A DNA stretch of 64,000 nt from Clostridia bacterium (GTDB taxonomy: Bacteria; Bacillota; Clostridia; Christensenellales; Aristaeellaceae), in assembly GCA_017395065.1 (NCBI GenBank), contig JAFPWH010000002.1:2156-66155 (forward strand), given 5' to 3'. A program made the position numbers and the translations under genes. The notes under the pieces are model-generated. The model made no database searches. It was not told the origin of the DNA and saw only the letters and a program-made list of their open reading frames with translations. The number at the start of each line of letters is the position of its first letter. Within the stretch, counting starts at the first letter, position 1. This document shows, in pieces, positions 2-53,460 of this stretch.

Positions 2-2113
2 AGCGGCAAGCGCCTCAGGGACAACGTCTTTTTCGGCACGGAGGACTGGAACCACGAAAACATACTGATCGTCAATTACGGCGGCCTGTTCGGCTACTAC
101 GACCTGGAAAGCGGCTGGCTGATCGAGCCCCGCTACGACAGCGCGATGAGCTTTGACGAAAACGGCCTTGCGCGCGTGGCGGTGGGCGAGCTTTGGGGCG
201 TGATCGACATGGAGGGGAACTACGTGTTCGAGCCGCAGTTCGAGCGCATCGGCTCCTTTGACTATGACGACGAGATCACCTGGGTCCGCAAGAACGGGCT
301 CGAGGGCTTTATCCGGCGCGACGGCACGGTCCTGGTCGAGCCGCAGTACGACGAGGTAAACTCGTTTGAAGGCGATACGCTGACCTGGGTCGTCAGGGAC
401 GGCCTTTACGGGGTCGTCGACCGGGAGGGAAACGAAGTGATCGGGCCCAGCTACGACAACGTCGATCTGTACGGCTATGAGAAAAGCGGCCTCATCCGGG
501 TTCAGGACGGAGAAAACTGGGGCTGCGTGGACATAAGCGGCAAGTGGGTCATCGAGCCTCAATTTGAGTACATGTATTACTTCGACGATTACGGCGCCGC
601 GCGGGTGGAACTCGAAAACGGGATGGGCCTTGTCTCCAAAACGGGCAAAATCATCCTCGAACCGGTGTATTACAATGTCGTGCAGGAAAGTGACGGCAGG
701 GCGTTTTTCGAAACGCACGGCGGCCTGTGGGGGCTTGTCCGCTATGACGGCACCGTGCTCGTAGAGCCGCGCTTTCAAAGCGTCAACCACTTCTATGAAG
801 GCCTTGCGTGCGTAGAAATAAACGGCAGATACGGTTTTATCGACGCGGAGGGCGAAATGGTCGTCGAAGCGAAATATGAGGACGCAGAATCGTTCTGTGA
901 AGGCCTTGCCGCCGTCGAAAGGGCGCAGGACGACTGGGTCTACGTCGACGCGCAGGGCACCGTCGCAATTGAGCCGGATCCCGGGTACGGGATGTATTCC
1001 TACGCCTACGGCTTTAAAAACGGCACCGCGGAGATCGAGGTATTAGATTACGCCGAACGGACCTACAGATACGGCCTGATCGACAAGACGGGCAGCGTAC
1101 TGCTTGAGCCGGTATACCGAGAGATCGACCAGCACGACGACGGCACGTTCACCGCTTACGACGAAGACCGGAATGATACCGTGTACGGCTTTGTGAACGG
1201 CAGATTGCAGGCGCTTTCCATCGTGAGCAACGATATGTACCTTCGGGACTACTATCCCAACACGGGCGCAAAGGTGGCGAAACTTTCCGGGAAAGCGCAC
1301 ATCGACTGGGACGAAGGCGCACCCTATCCGCGCCTGGACGGCGCAAAAGCACTTTTGCCCGTCTACGCGGCGTTTGCCGAGGCGGTGTATCCGGAAAACA
1401 CGCGCCTTGTGCCCTATGTGGAGGACGCAAACGCGCTGTTTACCTACACCAACACGGTCAGCGCCTACGAGCGCCTGATGCACGGCGAAACGGACATGAT
1501 CTTCTGCGCGGGCCCGAGCCGCGCCGAAACGGAGCAGGCCGCCGGGCTCGGCGTGGAATTCGAGCTCACCTGCATGGGGTACGAGGCGTTCGTGTTCATC
1601 GTAAACGCCGAAAACCCGCTGGAAAGCATCACGGTGGACGAGATCAGGGGCGTTTATTCCGGCGAGATCACGCGCTGGGACGAGCTCGGCGTTCAGGACA
1701 TCGGCGACATCATCGCCTACCAGCGCAACGAAAACAGCGGAAGCCAGACCACGCTGGAAAAGCTGATGGGGGATACACCCCTGATGAAAGCGCCGCAGAT
1801 GTACGTATCCGACGGCATGGAGGACATCCTGACCACCATCGAATACCGCAACTTCCCCAACGCCATCAGCTTCACCTTCCGCTTCTTCTGCAAGGATATG
1901 ATCGGCAGCGGCGTCAAAATGCTGGCGATCGACGGCGTCGATCCGACGGAGGAGAACATCCGCAACGGCTCCTACCCGCTGATCACCCCGATCTACGCGG
2001 TCACCAGAAAGGGCGACACGAACCCCAACATCCAGATCTTCCTCGACTGGATCAAAGGCCCGCAGGGCCAGGAGCTGCTGGAAAAGAGCGGATACGTGGG
2101 GATCGCCGGGTAA
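2..2113 (+). CDS. WG-repeat (KWG/WG_beta-like) protein fused to a C-terminal PstS-like phosphate-binding (PBP_like_2) domain. The 5' end is truncated by the window edge.
   Basis: The reading frame is open from nt 2; the ATG at 146 is internal. N-terminus carries repeated ~35-aa units of the form 'WG.ID..G..V.EPQF/Y'. C-terminal ~300 aa has PstS-like motifs ('ITVDEIRGVYSGEITRWDELG', 'NSGSQTTLEKLMG', 'YPLITPIYAVTRKG'). Confidence 0.7.
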   Translation, partial: SGKRLRDNVFFGTEDWNHENILIVNYGGLFGYYDLESGWLIEPRYDSAMSFDENGLARVAVGELWGVIDMEGNYVFEPQFERIGSFDYDDEITWVRKNGLEGFIRRDGTVLVEPQYDEVNSFEGDTLTWVVRDGLYGVVDREGNEVIGPSYDNVDLYGYEKSGLIRVQDGENWGCVDISGKWVIEPQFEYMYYFDDYGAARVELENGMGLVSKTGKIILEPVYYNVVQESDGRAFFETHGGLWGLVRYDGTVLVEPRFQSVNHFYEGLACVEINGRYGFIDAEGEMVVEAKYEDAESFCEGLAAVERAQDDWVYVDAQGTVAIEPDPGYGMYSYAYGFKNGTAEIEVLDYAERTYRYGLIDKTGSVLLEPVYREIDQHDDGTFTAYDEDRNDTVYGFVNGRLQALSIVSNDMYLRDYYPNTGAKVAKLSGKAHIDWDEGAPYPRLDGAKALLPVYAAFAEAVYPENTRLVPYVEDANALFTYTNTVSAYERLMHGETDMIFCAGPSRAETEQAAGLGVEFELTCMGYEAFVFIVNAENPLESITVDEIRGVYSGEITRWDELGVQDIGDIIAYQRNENSGSQTTLEKLMGDTPLMKAPQMYVSDGMEDILTTIEYRNFPNAISFTFRFFCKDMIGSGVKMLAIDGVDPTEENIRNGSYPLITPIYAVTRKGDTNPNIQIFLDWIKGPQGQELLEKSGYVGIAG

Positions 2114-2317
2114 ACGTACTGACGCGAAGCAAACCCCAATCCGTGACGGCAATCCCGTATTCCCCGTAGCGGCGGCAATCTGCCGCCACAGTCGAAACGT
2201 ATACACAGGAAACAGCATCATACGCAACGCCATAGCGCATACGCATCCCAAACGGCGACGAATTCGCAGCCATAACCCAATCCGTGACGGAAATCCAATG
2301 ACCCGGGAGGCACTCCG

Positions 2318-4492
2318 ATGAAACGCTTGCTTATCCTTCTTCTTACGTTTGCGCTTCTTTTGCCCGCACTTGCGGAAGACAATTATCCCGAGAACATACC
2401 CTGTGAATACGAGGGGCAGACGTACTTTCTTAGCTACGACGCGCAGAGAGGCGTTTTCCGCCTGAAGGACGCAGAAGGCGCGACCGTCAGGCAAAAGCTT
2501 TTCGGGTCGCTGACGTACAGCGAGGCGACGGATACGTATCTTATCAAAATCGGCGAACAGTACGGCTACCTCGACGGCGAGGGCAACTGGCTGTTCCCGT
2601 TCGGCTTCGACGAGGCCTATGCATTTCAGGACAACGGCGTTGCGGTCGTCAGGACGGGCGACCTGTGGGGCTATGTGCGCTCGGACGGCACGTACCTTTT
2701 CGAACCGCAGTTCACAAACGACCGGGGCTGGGGCGAACGGATGCAATTCCATCACGGCGCTGCCCGCGTACGTAAAGACGGCTTATACGGCTTTATCCGC
2801 GAGGACGGCACATACCTGTTCGAACCGCAATTCACAGATGCCAAACCGTTCTGGTATTGCACGATCACGCTGGTCGGTGATGAAAACGGCCTGTACGGGT
2901 ATGTTACGACGTCAGGGGAATTCCTCTTTGAACCGCAATTTGAATGGACGTCAGAGCCGTTCATGAATACCGATGACATAGCGCGTGTTTGGAAAAACGG
3001 CCTGGCCGGTTTCATCAAAGCGGACGGTACGTTTTTGCTGGAGCCGCAGTTCGAGGAGGCGAGCGGCTTCGGATCCGCAGGATATGCTCATGTCAGAAAA
3101 GACGGGTATTACGGACTCGTCGGGCTTGACGGAGCTTACCTGATCGAGCCGCGGTTCGAGAAAGATATATATTTCTACGGCGGCCTGGCTGCGGAACCTG
3201 TTGACGGATTGTACGGCTATATCGACATGAGCGGTGCGTTCGTTATACCGCCCGCGTTCGCATATGCCTGTGCTTTTTCCGAAGAAATCGCGGCAGTAAG
3301 GAACGCCGAAGGAAAATGGGGATATATAAACACTGCCGGGGAATATGTGACGGAACCGAAATATGACAGTGCGTACGCGTTTGAGCACGGTTTCGGCATA
3401 GTGGAAATGCTCAACGGCAGGAAGACGGAGTGGTGGGGGACCGAGTTTGACGATTATTATGTCGGCCTCGTGGATCATGACGGCCGGGAGGTGCTCGAGC
3501 CGATTTACGATTATATCGAAGTTACCGAAGACGGCATCATCACGGCCGAAAAGGACGGCGAAGAACGGATCTGTACCTATGAAAACGGAAAACTCAAGGA
3601 TATCGAGATCGTGGACACGGTATTGGATCTTTCGGATTACTATCCCAACCGGGGCGAAAAAGTGGTCACGCTCGGCGAAGAGGCGGATATCGCCTGGGAC
3701 AGCGCTTTTTCCCTGCCAAGGCTCGACGGCGCGACTGCGCTTCTGCCCACCTATTCGGCGTTTGCGCAGGCGACATATCCGCAGGACACGCACTTTGAAT
3801 ATTATGACGGCGCACAGTTTACCTGTACAAAAACCAATAGGGCCTACGATAACCTGATCTACGGGGAAACGGACATCATCTTCTGCGCAGGCCCCAGCGA
3901 CGCGCAGATCGAAGACGCGCTTGACGCGGGCGTGGAGTTTGAGTTCACGCTGATGGGCTATGAATCGTTCGTATTCATCGTAAACAGGGACAATCCGCTG
4001 GAGAGCATCACGCTCGAACAGATCAAAGATATCTACAGCGGAAAGCTTACCCAATGGGACGAAGTGGGCGTAAGCGGCATGGGCGACATCATCGCCTACC
4101 AGCGCCCGAAGAACAGCGGCAGCCAAACCGCGCTGGAGAAGCTGATGGGGGATACGCCCCTGATGGAAGCGCCGCAGATGTACGTTTCCGACGGCATGGA
4201 GGACATACTGACCACCATCGAATACCGCAACTTTCCCAACGCCATCGGCTACACCTTCCGCTTTTTCTGCGCGGACATGGTTGGCAGCAAGGTAAAGCTT
4301 TTGGCGGTCGACGGCGTGGAGGCGAACGTGGAAAATATAAGAAACGGCTCCTACCCCATCATCACCCCGCTGTACGCGGTCACCAGAAAGGGCGACACGA
4401 ACCCCAACATCCAAATCTTCCTCGACTGGATCAAAGGCCCGCAGGGCCAGGAGCTGCTGGAAAAGAGCGGATATGTGGGGATCGCGGGGTAA
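2318..4492 (+). CDS. Secreted WG-repeat protein fused to a PstS-like phosphate-binding domain. Paralog of the upstream gene.
   Basis: Signal peptide MKRLLILLLTFALLLPALA. More than 10 WG repeats ('LYGYV..DGT/SGEFLFEPQF'). C-terminal PstS-like domain; the last 30 aa are identical to the upstream gene. Confidence 0.75.
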   Translation: MKRLLILLLTFALLLPALAEDNYPENIPCEYEGQTYFLSYDAQRGVFRLKDAEGATVRQKLFGSLTYSEATDTYLIKIGEQYGYLDGEGNWLFPFGFDEAYAFQDNGVAVVRTGDLWGYVRSDGTYLFEPQFTNDRGWGERMQFHHGAARVRKDGLYGFIREDGTYLFEPQFTDAKPFWYCTITLVGDENGLYGYVTTSGEFLFEPQFEWTSEPFMNTDDIARVWKNGLAGFIKADGTFLLEPQFEEASGFGSAGYAHVRKDGYYGLVGLDGAYLIEPRFEKDIYFYGGLAAEPVDGLYGYIDMSGAFVIPPAFAYACAFSEEIAAVRNAEGKWGYINTAGEYVTEPKYDSAYAFEHGFGIVEMLNGRKTEWWGTEFDDYYVGLVDHDGREVLEPIYDYIEVTEDGIITAEKDGEERICTYENGKLKDIEIVDTVLDLSDYYPNRGEKVVTLGEEADIAWDSAFSLPRLDGATALLPTYSAFAQATYPQDTHFEYYDGAQFTCTKTNRAYDNLIYGETDIIFCAGPSDAQIEDALDAGVEFEFTLMGYESFVFIVNRDNPLESITLEQIKDIYSGKLTQWDEVGVSGMGDIIAYQRPKNSGSQTALEKLMGDTPLMEAPQMYVSDGMEDILTTIEYRNFPNAIGYTFRFFCADMVGSKVKLLAVDGVEANVENIRNGSYPIITPLYAVTRKGDTNPNIQIFLDWIKGPQGQELLEKSGYVGIAG

Positions 4493-4597
4493 ACGTGCGT
4501 TCAGCACCGCATCGACCCGCATACGCACCCCCGCCGGGCGGCGTTTCTTCCGCCGCTCGGTTATTATTTTGTAAAACTATACAAAAACGAACAAAAT

Positions 4598-4935
4598 GAT
4601 GGTATAATCATTTATGCGTTGAAGAAAAGCAGTAACCGTTTTTCCGCGCCCAAAGAGAACTGCCGGGCGGTGCGAGGCAGCGGGCGGAGGCGGTGAACTC
4701 GTTTCGGAGCATCCCTTTATGGGCGGCCGCCCGCGTTACAGGGCAAAAGAGAGGGTCTTACAAGGATCAGGAAGAGTGGTACCGCGCGTGCTTTCATGCG
4801 CCTCTTCGCCTGTAAGGGCTCTTTATTTTACGCGGACGAGGCGCCGCGCAAAAGAAATAAAGCGGCTTCAGGCCCCCTCAAACAACGAAAACACAGAACG
4901 ACCGCTTCAAGCGGGATCGTCACAAAGGAGTCGAT
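4598..4935 (+). promoter_or_regulatory. Promoter (extended -10 TGgTATAAT at 4600-4608) plus a T-box riboswitch leader of leuS.
   Basis: A ~330-nt leader lies between the promoter and the leuS ATG. It carries the conserved T-box sequence 'AGUGGUACCGCG' at 4775-4786. A candidate Leu specifier CUC sits at 4698-4700 in a 'GAACUCG' context. A U-run (ctttatttt, ~4838-4846) follows a GC-rich segment. The ORF-track start at 4796 lies inside this leader. Confidence 0.6.
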
Positions 4936-4939
4936 AACA

Positions 4940-7354
<2,415 letters not shown>

Positions 7355-50747: not shown

Positions 50748-52112
50748 ATGGATTGGGAAACTGTAAAACAACGGCTCGACGCACTGCTCGAAGCCGATAA
50801 GCGCATTGAACTTCGCGGCGCGCTCAGAATGCTCAACCGCGTGGACGTCGCGCAGTATCTGAGCGAACTGGACACCGAGAAGATGCTCAAGGTCTTCCGC
50901 ATACTGCCCAGCGAGATCTCCTCCGACGTCTTCAGCTACATGGACGACGACCAGCGCGAAAAACTGATCTCCACGATCGGCGATCAGGAGATCTGCCGTC
51001 TGGTCGACGACATGTTCATCGACGACGCGGTCGATTTTCTGGAGGACCTGCCCAGCGACCTCGTAAAGCGCGTCCTTGAAAACGTGAGCGACGACACGCG
51101 CAAGGTCATCAACCGCTTCCTCTCCTACCCCGAAAACAGCGCGGGCTCGATCATGACCATCGAGTTTTGCGCCTTCCCGGGCGATTTCACCGTGGCGCAG
51201 GCCATGAAGGAGATCCGGCGCACGGGCGTGGACAAGGAAACGATCAACACGCTCTACGTGCTGGACAAAAACGGAAAGCTGACCGGCACGCTGGCGCTCA
51301 GAAAGCTCATCAGCGCGGACGACGATCAGCCTGTAAGCGAGCTCAGCGACAGCAACTTCGTCTCCGTCGGCACGCTGGACGATCAGGAAATGGTCGCCGA
51401 GACCGTGCGCAAGTACGACCTGCTTGCCGTGCCGGTGGTCGACAAGGAAGGGCGTCCCGTGGGCATCATCACGGCCGACGACATTCTGGACGTATTGCAG
51501 GACGAGGCCACCGAGGACATCGAAAAGATGAGCGCTCTGACCCCGTCGGAGGACACCTACATGAAGACCGGCGTGTTCACGCTGGTCAAAAACAGGCTGC
51601 CGTGGCTTATGCTTATGCTTGTCGCATCGATCTTTACCGGCCTCATCATCAGCCACTACGAGGAGATTCTTACCGCGCCCGCGCTTGGGTCGATCGGCGT
51701 CGCGCTGACGGCCTGCATCCCCATGATCATGGACACGGGCGGCAACTGCGGCCAGCAGTCCTCGACGCTGATCATCCGCGGCCTCGCGACCGGCGAGGTC
51801 GGCCCGGGCGACGCGCTGAAGGTGCTCTGGAAGGAAACGCGCGTGGCGCTCCTGGTCGCCTGCGCGCTGGCCGTCGTATGTTTTCTGATACAGAAGTTCA
51901 TCTTCGGAATTGATCTGAGCGTTGCGATCACGATATCGCTTGCGATGATCTTCTGCGTGCTGTTTGCAAAAATACTGGGCGGGCTTTTGCCGCTGGGCGT
52001 GAAGGCGCTGCGCCTCGACCCGGCGCTGATCGCTTCGCCCATGATCACGACCGTCGCCGATACGTGCTCGCTGCTGATACTGTTCGTGCTGGCGACGGCG
52101 GTATTGCTGTAG
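50748..52112 (+). CDS. mgtE: Magnesium transporter MgtE
   Basis: MgtE_N ('DVAQYLSELDTEKMLKVFRILP'), tandem CBS domains, and an MgtE TM domain ('IPMIMDTGGNCGQQSSTLIIRGLATGEV'). Confidence 0.9.
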   Translation: MDWETVKQRLDALLEADKRIELRGALRMLNRVDVAQYLSELDTEKMLKVFRILPSEISSDVFSYMDDDQREKLISTIGDQEICRLVDDMFIDDAVDFLEDLPSDLVKRVLENVSDDTRKVINRFLSYPENSAGSIMTIEFCAFPGDFTVAQAMKEIRRTGVDKETINTLYVLDKNGKLTGTLALRKLISADDDQPVSELSDSNFVSVGTLDDQEMVAETVRKYDLLAVPVVDKEGRPVGIITADDILDVLQDEATEDIEKMSALTPSEDTYMKTGVFTLVKNRLPWLMLMLVASIFTGLIISHYEEILTAPALGSIGVALTACIPMIMDTGGNCGQQSSTLIIRGLATGEVGPGDALKVLWKETRVALLVACALAVVCFLIQKFIFGIDLSVAITISLAMIFCVLFAKILGGLLPLGVKALRLDPALIASPMITTVADTCSLLILFVLATAVLL

Positions 52113-52125
52113 GGGAGGTGCCGCA

Positions 52126-53460
52126 ATGGATTTTGAAACCATCAAGCAGCGCCTGGACAAGCTTCTGGACAGCGACAGGATGGGCGAGCTGCGCGGGGCG
52201 CTGATGATGCTCAACGTCGTGGACATCGCCGAATACATGGACAGCCTCGAAAAGGACAAGATGCTCAAAACCTACCGCATTTTGCCCAAGGACATCTCCG
52301 CCGAGGTCTTCACCTACCTCTCCGACGAGCAAAAGCAGTACCTGATGGAGCTCATCGGAGACAGCGAGACCGCCGAGCTCATCAGCAACATGTTCGTGGA
52401 CGACGCCGTGGACTTTCTGGAGGAGCTGCCCGCGAACCTCGTGACCCGCCTGCTCAAAAACGTCAACGAGGAGCAGCGCCGCACGATCAACCGCTTCCTT
52501 TCCTACCCCGAAAACAGCGCAGGCTCGATCATGACCATCGAGTTCTGTTCGCTCAAAGAGGGGCTGACCGTCGCCGAGGCGATGAAGTACTTAAAGCAGA
52601 ACAGCCTCGACAAGGAGACGATCTACACGCTGTACGTGCTGGGACCGTCGCACCAGCTGCGCGGCACGCTGCCGCTCAGGCGCCTGATCCTGGCAGACGA
52701 AAACGCGGTCGTCGACTCCATCATGAGCACGAACTACATCTACGCCAACACGCTGGACGATCAGGAGCAGGTGGCCGAGCTCGTGCGCAGGTACGACCTG
52801 ATGAGTGTGCCGATCGTCGACAAGGAAGGACGCATGGTGGGCATCGTCACCGCCGACGACATCATGGACGTCATCGAGGAAGAGGCCACCGAGGACATCG
52901 AAAAGATGAACGCCCTTTTGCCCTCCGAGGACGAATATTTAAAGACCAAGCCCGTAAAGCTGGCCGGCAACCGCCTGCCCTGGCTCATGTTCATGATGAT
53001 CTCGAGCATCTTTACCGAGCTCATCATCTCCCACTTTTCCGGTTCGCTCGCCGGCGCGTTCACGGCCTGCATCCCGATGCTGATGGGCACGGGCGGCAAC
53101 AGCGGCTCCCAGTCCTCGACGCTGGTGATCCGCGGCCTGGCGCTTGGCGAGATCAGCCCCGGCGACGCCTTGAAGGTGCTGTGGAAGGAATTTCGCGTTT
53201 CGCTGATCGTGAGCGCGCTGCTTGCGGTCGTGACGTTCCTGATCCAGTACTTCATCTTCGACGCCGGCATGGACGCGCTGGCGATCTCTCTTGCGATGAT
53301 CGGCACGGTGACGCTGGCCAAGTGCATCGGCTGCACGCTGCCGCTTCTGGCCAAAAAGCTCAAGCTCGACCCCGCTCTCATGGCCGCGCCGCTGATCACC
53401 ACCATCGTGGACGTGTGCTCGCTTTTGATACTGGTGCTGTGCGCCCATCTGGCTTTCTGA
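52126..53460 (+). CDS. mgtE: Magnesium transporter MgtE (second tandem paralog)
   Basis: Same architecture as mgtE-1 ('IPMLMGTGGNSGSQSSTLVIRGLALGEI'). ~55% identical to the upstream copy. Confidence 0.9.
   Translation: MDFETIKQRLDKLLDSDRMGELRGALMMLNVVDIAEYMDSLEKDKMLKTYRILPKDISAEVFTYLSDEQKQYLMELIGDSETAELISNMFVDDAVDFLEELPANLVTRLLKNVNEEQRRTINRFLSYPENSAGSIMTIEFCSLKEGLTVAEAMKYLKQNSLDKETIYTLYVLGPSHQLRGTLPLRRLILADENAVVDSIMSTNYIYANTLDDQEQVAELVRRYDLMSVPIVDKEGRMVGIVTADDIMDVIEEEATEDIEKMNALLPSEDEYLKTKPVKLAGNRLPWLMFMMISSIFTELIISHFSGSLAGAFTACIPMLMGTGGNSGSQSSTLVIRGLALGEISPGDALKVLWKEFRVSLIVSALLAVVTFLIQYFIFDAGMDALAISLAMIGTVTLAKCIGCTLPLLAKKLKLDPALMAAPLITTIVDVCSLLILVLCAHLAF

Follow-up and report, generated by a model that had tools for sequence, protein, structure and literature searches.

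In an uncultured Clostridia bacterium of gut or rumen, two adjacent genes raise the question of what a PstS-like, phosphate-binding type of domain does when it is carried on an array of WG repeats and no phosphate transporter is encoded beside it. The genes, here called A and B, lie at the left end of the window, the 64,000-nucleotide stretch of contig JAFPWH010000002.1 that was analysed (Table 1). Gene A is cut by the window edge, as the preliminary description of the locus had recognized; at full length it encodes 763 residues and starts 180 nt to the left of the window, and the L001 copy matches its in-window part exactly. The product of gene B is identical to an NCBI entry named 'MAG: WG repeat-containing protein [Clostridia bacterium]'. 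The tandem pair was recovered in independent assemblies from two samples, with 0 and 3 mismatches to the window, and is therefore not an assembly artefact. A search for further paralogs upstream of the window had been suggested; ours found none, and a 2-hydroxyacid dehydrogenase gene precedes gene A.

Table 1. Features of the A-B locus, numbered from the first letter of the window.
Feature	Position	Strand	Details
Gene A	<2..2113	+	3' 703 codons plus stop in window; runs off left edge
WG beta-repeat array, gene A, in-window part	2..1228	+	Pfam PF14903; units anchored on (L/V)xEPxF
YzgL-type PstS-like domain, gene A	1229..2110	+	Pfam match; pocket variants
Conversion tract 1, A side	1760..1884	+	94% nt identity to 4139-4263
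Conversion tract 2, A side (3' end)	1994..2110	+	3 differences/117 nt
A-B spacer	2114..2317	+	One copy of ~170-nt element; GGGAGG ribosome-binding site for gene B
Gene B	2318..4492	+	724 aa
Signal peptide, gene B	2318..2374	+	MKRLLILLLTFALLLPALA, then EDN; read from sequence, putative cleavage site
WG beta-repeat array, gene B	2555..3607	+	About 9 units; all-beta in model
YzgL-type PstS-like domain, gene B	3617..4489	+	Putative anion site T473, T506, S527/D528, R596, S600-G601-S602
Conversion tract 1, B side	4139..4263	+	Defined by nt identity, orthologue comparison, dS
Conversion tract 2, B side	4373..4489	+	Defined by nt identity, orthologue comparison, dS
Intrinsic terminator after gene B	4533..4571	+	11-bp stem, 9 GC pairs, then T-run

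Both genes encode a signal peptide, then 9-10 WG beta-repeats and then a complete PBP_like_2 domain. The pairing of repeats and binding domain had been described before, and both modules were matched in A and B by their Pfam families, PF14903 (WG_beta_rep) and PF12849 (PBP_like_2). Against a gathering cut-off of 25.6 bits, WG_beta_rep scored 225 bits in gene A (E 6e-68, 7 scored repeats) and 179 bits in gene B (E 1e-53, 6 scored repeats); by eye, about 10 units of ~35 aa can be counted in gene A and about 9 in gene B, and in the structure model of gene B a unit consists of three strands. We found no solved structure for a WG repeat, and bacterial WG repeats receive only passing mentions in the literature. 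Other WG_beta_rep proteins share the same ~35-aa repeat, and caspase, TIR and SH3 are among the many modules to which their arrays are fused; in A and B, by contrast, the array is paired with a solute-binding domain and is predicted to be extracytoplasmic. A search of phage and plasmid collections returned no full-length WG/PstS-like fusion. In gene B the signal peptide has the features of type I signal-peptidase substrates and is modelled as a helix over residues 2-18. A lipobox cysteine is absent from the signal peptides of both A and B; an L-x-A-C lipobox is present in some homologues (for example P0007 and P0013). Judged by these signal peptides, both products are probably Sec-exported without a lipid or membrane anchor, which agrees with the secreted nature that had been suggested for them.

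The C-terminal domain was matched by PBP_like_2 in both products with 81 bits (E 1e-22; gathering cut-off 27 bits) over profile positions 14-263 of 267. The NCBIfam model of the PstS family (TIGR02136, ptsS_2) gave 93.8 and 99.9 bits, less than half of its curated cut-off of 206.6 bits, and aligned through the second half of the profile only. Among solved structures, those of PstS proteins (class II solute-binding protein, phosphate cluster) come nearest to the predicted one, so that the modelled fold is clearly that of PstS, and the alternative of an unrelated periplasmic-binding fold was not borne out; the model has a pTM of 0.60, which does not fix the arrangement of the WG and PstS-like modules. 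Both the fold and the sequence of the C-lobe are nearest to proven phosphate binders such as C. perfringens PBP-1 (E 1e-28). The full domain profile aligns to solved PstS proteins from position ~103 on only, and a profile of the first ~100 domain residues matched no chain in the PDB even at E<=10. For the N-lobe, the residue equivalences that we give therefore follow the order of the motifs and the predicted secondary structure only.

Within the PstS fold, the two domains belong to a distinct and widespread subfamily that we call YzgL-type after its E. coli member, and which is defined by the motifs LDGATALxPxY, Thr, DxIF..PS and YQRxxxSGSQ together with high identity over the whole domain. 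The family comprises ~2,100 clusters at 50% identity, and its members, which occur in spore-forming Bacilli, in Clostridia of gut and rumen and in most E. coli strains, all carry the annotation of a phosphate ABC transporter component. In most relatives the domain is anchored by 3-6 transmembrane helices; A and B lack such an N-terminal multi-helix anchor and have the signal peptide and the WG repeats in its place. Over the 72 kb that begin 7.7 kb before the window and extend to its end, no pstC, pstA, pstB or phoU gene was found, which bears out the earlier remark that no pstCAB genes are nearby. None of 70 family loci adjoins pstCAB, a pst operon lies within 10 kb in only one of them, and the 70 loci have no conserved gene neighbourhood. 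Fusions to signalling output domains were not found either; the partners are WG, Ank/Sel1, NUDIX, SH3 and tandem PBP domains only.

Intact E. coli YzgL (502-505 aa) lies between glgP and glpD, is annotated as 'PstS family phosphate ABC transporter substrate-binding protein', and is carried at near full length by 3,348 of 5,426 complete genomes; K-12 has only the fragment yzgL (b3427) left. It is 42% identical to the A/B domain over the whole domain, including the N-lobe, has all of the signature motifs and is likewise an orphan with respect to pstSCAB. Unlike A and B, it has several N-terminal membrane helices, lacks WG repeats and is present as a single copy. The literature mentions yzgL only in passing and describes no function for it.

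The preliminary description had made the phosphate-ligating residues a point to be checked, and the check gave a mixed result. The pattern of core anion donors in PstS (E. coli T10, S38, R135 and S139-T141; C. perfringens T12, S41, R125 and S129-T131) appears to be kept: helix 1 and helix 2 each begin with a Thr, and an Arg and a Ser-Gly-Ser helix cap come after them. The C-lobe donors align directly to PstS; for the N-lobe donors the placement relies on motif and secondary structure only. In gene B the putative donors are T473, T506, R596 and S600-G601-S602, each conserved in 89-92 of 93 family sequences. What is lost is the Thr/Ser-Arg-Asp proton-relay triad of S-type PstS proteins, which in SphX consists of T17, R231 and D89 (PMC13614923) and in which Thr17Ala abolishes phosphate binding. 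Gene B has Ala474 (Ala in 93/93 sequences), Thr683 (variable, T/S/A/H) and Glu549 instead. Measured against the S-type set of C. perfringens PBP-1 (4GD5/4Q8R), Synechocystis SphX and Sll0540 and V. cholerae 1TWY, the A/B family replaces Ser11 and Ser13 by Ala and the Asp-Arg pair of the triad by Glu plus Thr/Ser/Ala, where the C. perfringens Asp and Arg are tentatively mapped by way of conserved motifs in three S-type structures. The A/B proteins further differ from this set in an N-lobe that is not recognisably related in sequence, in having neither a lipoprotein anchor nor a pst operon, and in their N-terminal ordered extension and repeat array. D-type PstS proteins are distinguished by an Asp that forms a short hydrogen bond (E. 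coli D56); by sequence position the candidate counterpart in gene B would be D528, directly after the invariant S527, and such an Asp is not conserved across the family, the position being D/E/Q family-wide and R/Q/K/W in the gene A clade. In the pocket of gene A, moreover, the Thr at the first donor position is replaced by Lys (LDGAKAL), a Lys is replaced by Asn (TYTNT) and the residue that follows the invariant Ser is Arg, as part of a coordinated change in its clade (Thr to Lys, Lys to Asn, Asp to Arg/Gln/Lys/Trp).

The 3' ends of the two genes had been described as identical over the last ~90 nt or 30 residues. The C-terminal residues are indeed identical, over 39 residues rather than 30; the nucleotides are not strictly so, with 3 synonymous differences in the last 117 nt and a longest exact run of 59 nt. 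Amino acid identity between A and B is 10-50% across the repeats, rises to 40-70% over the N-terminal half of the binding domain and reaches 93-100% in two blocks near the end, so that the reported excess of similarity at the 3' side over the repeats held. These blocks reflect two tracts in the 3' third that were overwritten by interparalogue gene conversion, which left the C-terminal 39 residues identical. In tract 1, about 230-350 nt from the gene end, dS(A,B) is 0.26, compared with 1.26 upstream, and B is 84-88% identical to the A-type orthologue and 82% to its own. In tract 2, A and B are 97% identical in nucleotides (dS about 0.13; 0.125), as against 76-81% (dS 0.6-0.72) to orthologues; only over these last ~40 codons does the similarity of A to B exceed that of each copy to its own orthologues. 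Conversion had originally been offered alongside recent duplication, and high nucleotide identity at the gene ends would suit a duplication or an assembly artefact as well. We rejected both as barely credible: dS between the copies is 1.3-2.1 outside the converted tracts, each copy has its own orthologues elsewhere with which it shares clade-specific residues, and the same arrangement occurs in independent assemblies. With separate orthologues and dS above 1 outside the tracts, A and B are old paralogues, and both genes are under purifying selection.

The two genes are probably a two-gene operon closed by the terminator downstream of gene B; no terminator-like site was found in the A-B spacer. 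The ~170-nt element in this spacer has two more copies in tandem upstream of gene A, matches no Rfam family and folds weakly. A Pho-box-like direct repeat (TTAACTAAAACTTAAC) is present in one copy 95 nt upstream of gene A. We do not take it as evidence for Pho control, since neither gene B nor the orthologues nor 70 other family genes have such a site in their upstream regions.

Taking the pocket and the domain context together, we lean towards A and B being surface-displayed receptors for a phosphate-type anion, in which the WG array would replace the membrane anchor; the ligand and the role are read from sequence. Because the core anion donors of PstS appear to be kept, the domain would most likely close on a phosphate-type oxyanion of tetrahedral shape, which might be orthophosphate or a terminal phosphoryl group. 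Because the WG array takes the place of the 3-6 transmembrane helices of relatives, it most likely does the same anchoring job and would hold and space the Venus-flytrap domain at the cell surface, either attached to the wall or serving as a scaffold. The pockets differ (Thr and Asp in B, Lys and Arg in A), so the two proteins are probably unlike in ligand or affinity. Binding might be followed by delivery to a Pst permease encoded elsewhere, by signalling or by simple capture. There is precedent for a PstS-type domain exposed on a non-transporter scaffold in secreted clostridial YARHG-PBP_like_2 proteins (PMC3355149) and in the PstS reported to be displayed on P. aeruginosa appendages (PMC2242829); the scaffolds differ from WG, and the likeness lies in surface exposure.

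The more conservative interpretation is that A and B are ordinary PstS proteins, which would bind orthophosphate with high affinity and dock on a PstCAB permease encoded elsewhere, with the WG array only a tether. The fold and the C-lobe similarity to proven phosphate binders fit this, as do the invariant Arg and Ser-Gly-Ser cap, and extra pstS copies distant from pstCAB are known, Sll0540 being an example. We nevertheless consider it unlikely, given a score far under the PstS family cut-off, the missing S-type triad, the Lys and Arg in the pocket of copy A, the near absence of pst genes from the family loci, the lack of a lipobox and domain partners that are scaffold repeats. A switch of ligand, to a phosphoester, a phosphonate, a wall-polymer phosphate or another oxyanion, or else use of the domain for protein interaction, in which A and B would each be adapted to a target of its own, has an outside chance that we take a little more seriously. 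The pocket Thr has small Ala neighbours and the Arg of the triad is missing, so that the known proton acceptors are gone and space could open; the coordinated substitutions of the A clade and the orphan state of the family everywhere examined point the same way, and some beta-glycerophosphate binding is already seen in the S-type SphX. The retained donors, however, fit orthophosphate equally well. A broader proposal, which we put forward only tentatively and think improbable, is that YzgL-type domains are widespread transporter-independent surface receptors for a phosphoryl or other anion and that A and B are co-expressed with unlike pockets (Thr/Asp and Lys/Arg) and a shared C-terminal surface, which conversion would keep identical because both dock on a common partner.

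Gene conversion between A and B is in itself ordinary. The WG fusion is one of few contextual clues to an extracellular role of WG repeats, and the YzgL-type binding domain defines a large PstS-like family that is without a described function. Should its ligand turn out to be something other than simply orthophosphate, thousands of annotations would be misleading and there would be a new kind of surface receptor to describe, and the existence of an E. coli member, YzgL, makes this question experimentally easy to address for the family.

Genes A and B are same-strand paralogues, each encoding a signal peptide, WG β-repeats and a PstS-like PBP_like_2 domain. As the preliminary description had it, gene A is cut by the window edge; its start was supplied by a 104-kb metagenome contig of the same sequence, on which the full gene encodes 763 residues and is preceded by a 2-hydroxyacid dehydrogenase gene, with none of the further upstream paralogues for which a search had been proposed. 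The window matched two independent assemblies with 0 and 3 mismatches. The domain annotation was borne out by Pfam, with WG_beta_rep found at E values of 6e-68 (A) and 1e-53 (B) and followed by PBP_like_2 (E 1e-22); by eye, A contains about 10 and B about 9 WG units of ~35 residues. Classical signal peptides at both N-termini, MKKLLSLILVLLLLPAGFA/ENG in A and MKRLLILLLTFALLLPALA/EDN in B, point to Sec export and cleavage by type I signal peptidase, and both proteins are devoid of a lipobox cysteine, C-terminal anchor and sorting motif. Each gene has a GGGAGG ribosome-binding site, and the only terminator-like site at the pair is a strong hairpin after gene B, so that A and B are probably transcribed as one unit. 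The T-box leader and leuS (leucyl-tRNA synthetase gene) beyond it form an ordinary arrangement.

Coordinates of the gene pair, nearby elements and related genes (L001, fetched locus carrying the full gene A; L010, L036, L088 and L089, other fetched loci)
Feature	Position	Strand	Remarks
Gene A	window 2–2113	+	ORF, open at left edge; frame from 2
Gene B	window 2318–4492	same as gene A	ORF; 204 nt after gene A
~170-nt element	window ~2120–2300 (core 2164–2191)
~170-nt element, two copies	L001 6998–7167, 7168–7337
PhoP-box-like repeat	L001 7410–7425		95 nt upstream of gene A, outside window
Terminator-like hairpin	window 4533–4561		after gene B
T-box leader	window 4610–4808	+	Rfam RF00230, 93.3 bits, at gathering score; upstream of leuS
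leuS	window 4941–7354		after T-box leader
Phosphoesterase-type genes	window ~9.5–31.5 kb, ~36.5 kb		scattered
Sigma factor and protease genes	window ~22.3–28.0 kb
MgtE paralogues	window 50748–53460	+	two in tandem (454, 444 aa)
WG-PstS-like gene and tandem paralogue	L010 10880–12394
Sporosarcina family copies, pstS and pstB	L036 558–1556 (-), 1885–2703 (-); 6552–7817, 9698–10858 (+)		family copies within 4 kb; pstS and pstB 5–9 kb away
Intact E. coli gene	L088 4266–5783; L089 6008–7516

The identity between A and B is a mosaic. The repeats share 10–50% of amino acids and the first half of the binding domain 40–70%; a tract ~227–351 nt from the end (tract 1) is 94% identical in nucleotides, the next ~110 nt 72%, and the last 117 nt (tract 2) 97%, so the earlier observation that the PstS-like 3′ segments are more alike than the repeats stands. 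Identity had also been claimed for the last ~90 nt or 30 residues; this applies to the proteins, which share their final 39 residues, but not to the DNA, in which tract 2 differs at three synonymous sites and matches without a break for at most 59 nt. Both genes have their own orthologues in other metagenomes (P0005, P0006 and P0009 for A; P0002, P0004 and P0008 for B), and this grouping was seen in all segments except the last 52 residues, where A and B share 96% identity with each other but only 73–83% with those orthologues. Codon alignments built with the DNA of P0009 and P0004 agree: over the last ~40 codons A and B are 97% identical (92% at third positions), and match their orthologues at 76% (A) and 81% (B), with 63% at third positions for both. 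Synonymous divergence between A and B is 2.1 in the repeats and 1.26 in the first part of the binding domain, falls to 0.26 in residues 587–646, rises to 0.95 in residues 647–686 and falls again to 0.125 in residues 687–724.

Gene conversion and recent duplication had both been offered for these near-identical ends. The low synonymous divergence of the two tracts is what conversion leaves, and separate orthologues together with a divergence of 2.1 in the repeats speak against a recent duplication; the mosaic, the orthologues and the dips therefore show an old duplication in which two short tracts were homogenised later by gene conversion, a textbook process. In tract 1, B is nearer the A-type orthologue than its own, which suggests copying from A to B. 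Both lineages are under purifying selection (dN/dS 0.07–0.35). The tandem arrangement is not conserved among orthologues: the P0009 gene still follows a dehydrogenase gene without an adjoining B copy, and the P0004 gene lies elsewhere, near an integrase gene. In another Clostridiales MAG, a WG-PstS-like gene has behind it a tandem paralogue that also has WG repeats but whose binding domain is truncated and degenerate, missing the N-lobe and reading QAITRSVEQ instead of QRPKNSGSQ; these genes have therefore duplicated and diverged more than once.

Membership of the C-terminal domain in the PstS family in the narrow sense is not secure. It scores less than half of the cut-off of the NCBIfam PstS model and aligns to solved PstS proteins only from position ~103 onward, and its first ~100 residues, used as a profile against the PDB, retrieved no chain even at E ≤ 10. 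It belongs to a well-defined subfamily, here called YzgL-type after its E. coli member, with invariant or nearly invariant motifs: LDGATAL(L/F/Y)PxY, a Thr starting the second helix, DxIF..PS, (E/D)AFVF, YQRxxxSGSQ, YRNxxNAIGY(S/T)FR and YP....(Y/F)A. The subfamily comprises more than 586 loci among GTDB species representatives and 2,145 clusters at 50% identity (exhaustive profile search, E ≤ 1e-30). Most members, from spore-forming Bacilli (Psychrobacillus, Sporosarcina, Paenibacillus, Lysinibacillus, Brevibacillus) and Clostridia, have 385–430 residues with three or four N-terminal transmembrane helices ahead of the domain (up to six or seven in some members). In a neighbour-joining tree, the forms with a signal peptide and WG repeats instead of membrane helices fall together in one clade (94 sequences). 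They derive from gut and rumen Clostridia metagenomes; the full WG and PBP_like_2 architecture occurs in at least 77 clusters at 90% identity.

The E. coli member, 502–505 residues long and encoded between glgP and glpD, shares 42% identity with gene B across the entire domain (E 2e-63). Of 5,426 complete genomes, 3,348 carry it at near full length; K-12-like strains retain only the first ~235 nt, annotated yzgL. Three hypothetical genes follow the intact gene at two fetched loci. Our literature search for functional studies of yzgL returned passing mentions only.

In the putative anion site, the C-lobe donors align directly with gene B residues R596, S600, G601 and S602, all of them invariant or almost invariant among 93 relatives. 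The N-lobe follows the element order of PstS (strand, G-x-T-x at a helix start, Thr-started second helix, strand, helix), and DGSGTVYP of a canonical lipoprotein PstS encoded next to pstB at one fetched locus aligns to DGATALxP; on these grounds Ser11, Thr12, Ser13 and Ser41 of C. perfringens PBP-1 correspond to Ala472, Thr473, Ala474 and Thr506, and Ser59 to Ser527, which is invariant, or possibly to a nearby residue. A 2026 study distinguished D-type PstS, with an Asp in a short hydrogen bond, from S-type PstS, in which a Thr/Ser-Arg-Asp relay takes up the phosphate proton; binding was abolished in SphX Thr17Ala and 30-fold lower in PBP-1 Ser13Ala (PMC13614923). In the YzgL-type family the relay positions are instead Ala474 (93/93), a variable Thr/Ser/Ala/His and Glu549, and the residue after Ser527, Asp in the gene B clade, is conserved family-wide no further than D/E/Q. 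The phosphate-ligating residues in question thus appear partly retained: R596, S600-G601-S602 and, by motif order, Thr473 and Thr506 are kept in B, but the relay Ser13 is Ala474 and the gene A clade has Lys for Thr473. Judged from sequence, the donor shell appears to be kept, with neither known proton-acceptor arrangement clearly present, which fits a phosphate-type oxyanion and may mean lower affinity, another protonation state or a substituted phosphoryl ligand. The gene A clade further carries Asn for Lys505, Arg/Gln/Lys/Trp for Asp528 and Ser-Phe for Gly-Tyr in the AIGY strand; these pocket differences are coordinated, and the paralogues therefore probably differ in ligand or affinity.

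The reported lack of pstCAB nearby was confirmed, none of pstC, pstA, pstB and phoU being encoded within the window or in the 7.7 kb before it; the window's single ABC permease pair accompanies an SBP_bac_1 protein and probably belongs to a sugar system. Across 70 family loci there is no conserved neighbour, and a pst operon lies within 10 kb at one only, in Sporosarcina sp. ACRSM, where two membrane-anchored family copies are found near a canonical lipoprotein pstS and pstB. Domain partners in the family are WG repeats, SH3b with WG repeats, Ankyrin with Sel1 repeats, a second copy of the PstS-like domain and a cytoplasmic NUDIX domain before the membrane helices; these are tethers or scaffolds, with no kinase, cyclase or chemoreceptor output domain among them. 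YARHG, a putative peptidoglycan-binding domain, has been described joined to a PBP_like_2 domain (PMC3355149) and would be a further partner of this kind if that domain belongs to the YzgL-type. Elsewhere the window contains an ECF-type sigma factor gene followed by one for a 502-residue protein without Pfam match and three consecutive Trypsin_2 protease genes (336, 495, 344 aa), MgtE magnesium transporter paralogues, and several phosphoesterase-type genes (Exo_endo_phos, TPM_phosphatase, Phosphodiest, His_Phos_1). None of the phosphoesterase-type genes adjoins A or B, and no link to them was established.

Two tandem copies of a ~170-nt element lie upstream of gene A and a third between A and B (75–85% identity). 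Its GC hairpin core, CCGTAGCGGCGGCAATCTGCCGCCACAG, is perfectly conserved, and neither the rest of the window nor 85 other loci contain a copy. No Rfam family matches the element, and it folds weakly (z -2.0); it could serve as a common leader or regulatory repeat, or be a small local repeat that was copied along with the gene. A direct repeat upstream of gene A, TTAACTAAAACTTAAC, resembles a Bacillus PhoP box pair. No other site of this kind occurs in 22 kb, and gene B, the orthologues and 70 other family genes have none upstream.

In the mechanism we propose, both proteins would be exported and their signal peptides removed; the WG array, modelled as all-β with three strands per unit (residues 27–434), would stand in for the ancestral membrane anchor and hold the binding domain at the surface, where its Venus flytrap would shut on a phosphate-type anion. 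Binding might then lead to hand-over to a Pst permease encoded elsewhere, to docking on a receptor, as P. aeruginosa PstS docks on CtpL (PMC8050422), or to plain capture. We regard this reading of A and B, as exported, WG-scaffolded surface domains that bind a phosphate-type anion, as somewhat probable overall; its structural and evolutionary parts are held with high confidence, and those on ligand and role are tentative. NCBI already lists a 'WG repeat-containing protein' of a Clostridia MAG that is exactly the gene B protein, and databases also contain the WG and PBP_like_2 combination; the sequence is thus not new in itself. The undescribed part is the subfamily, namely how it stands apart from canonical PstS, is an orphan, uses alternative anchors, has an altered pocket and is linked to E. 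coli yzgL.
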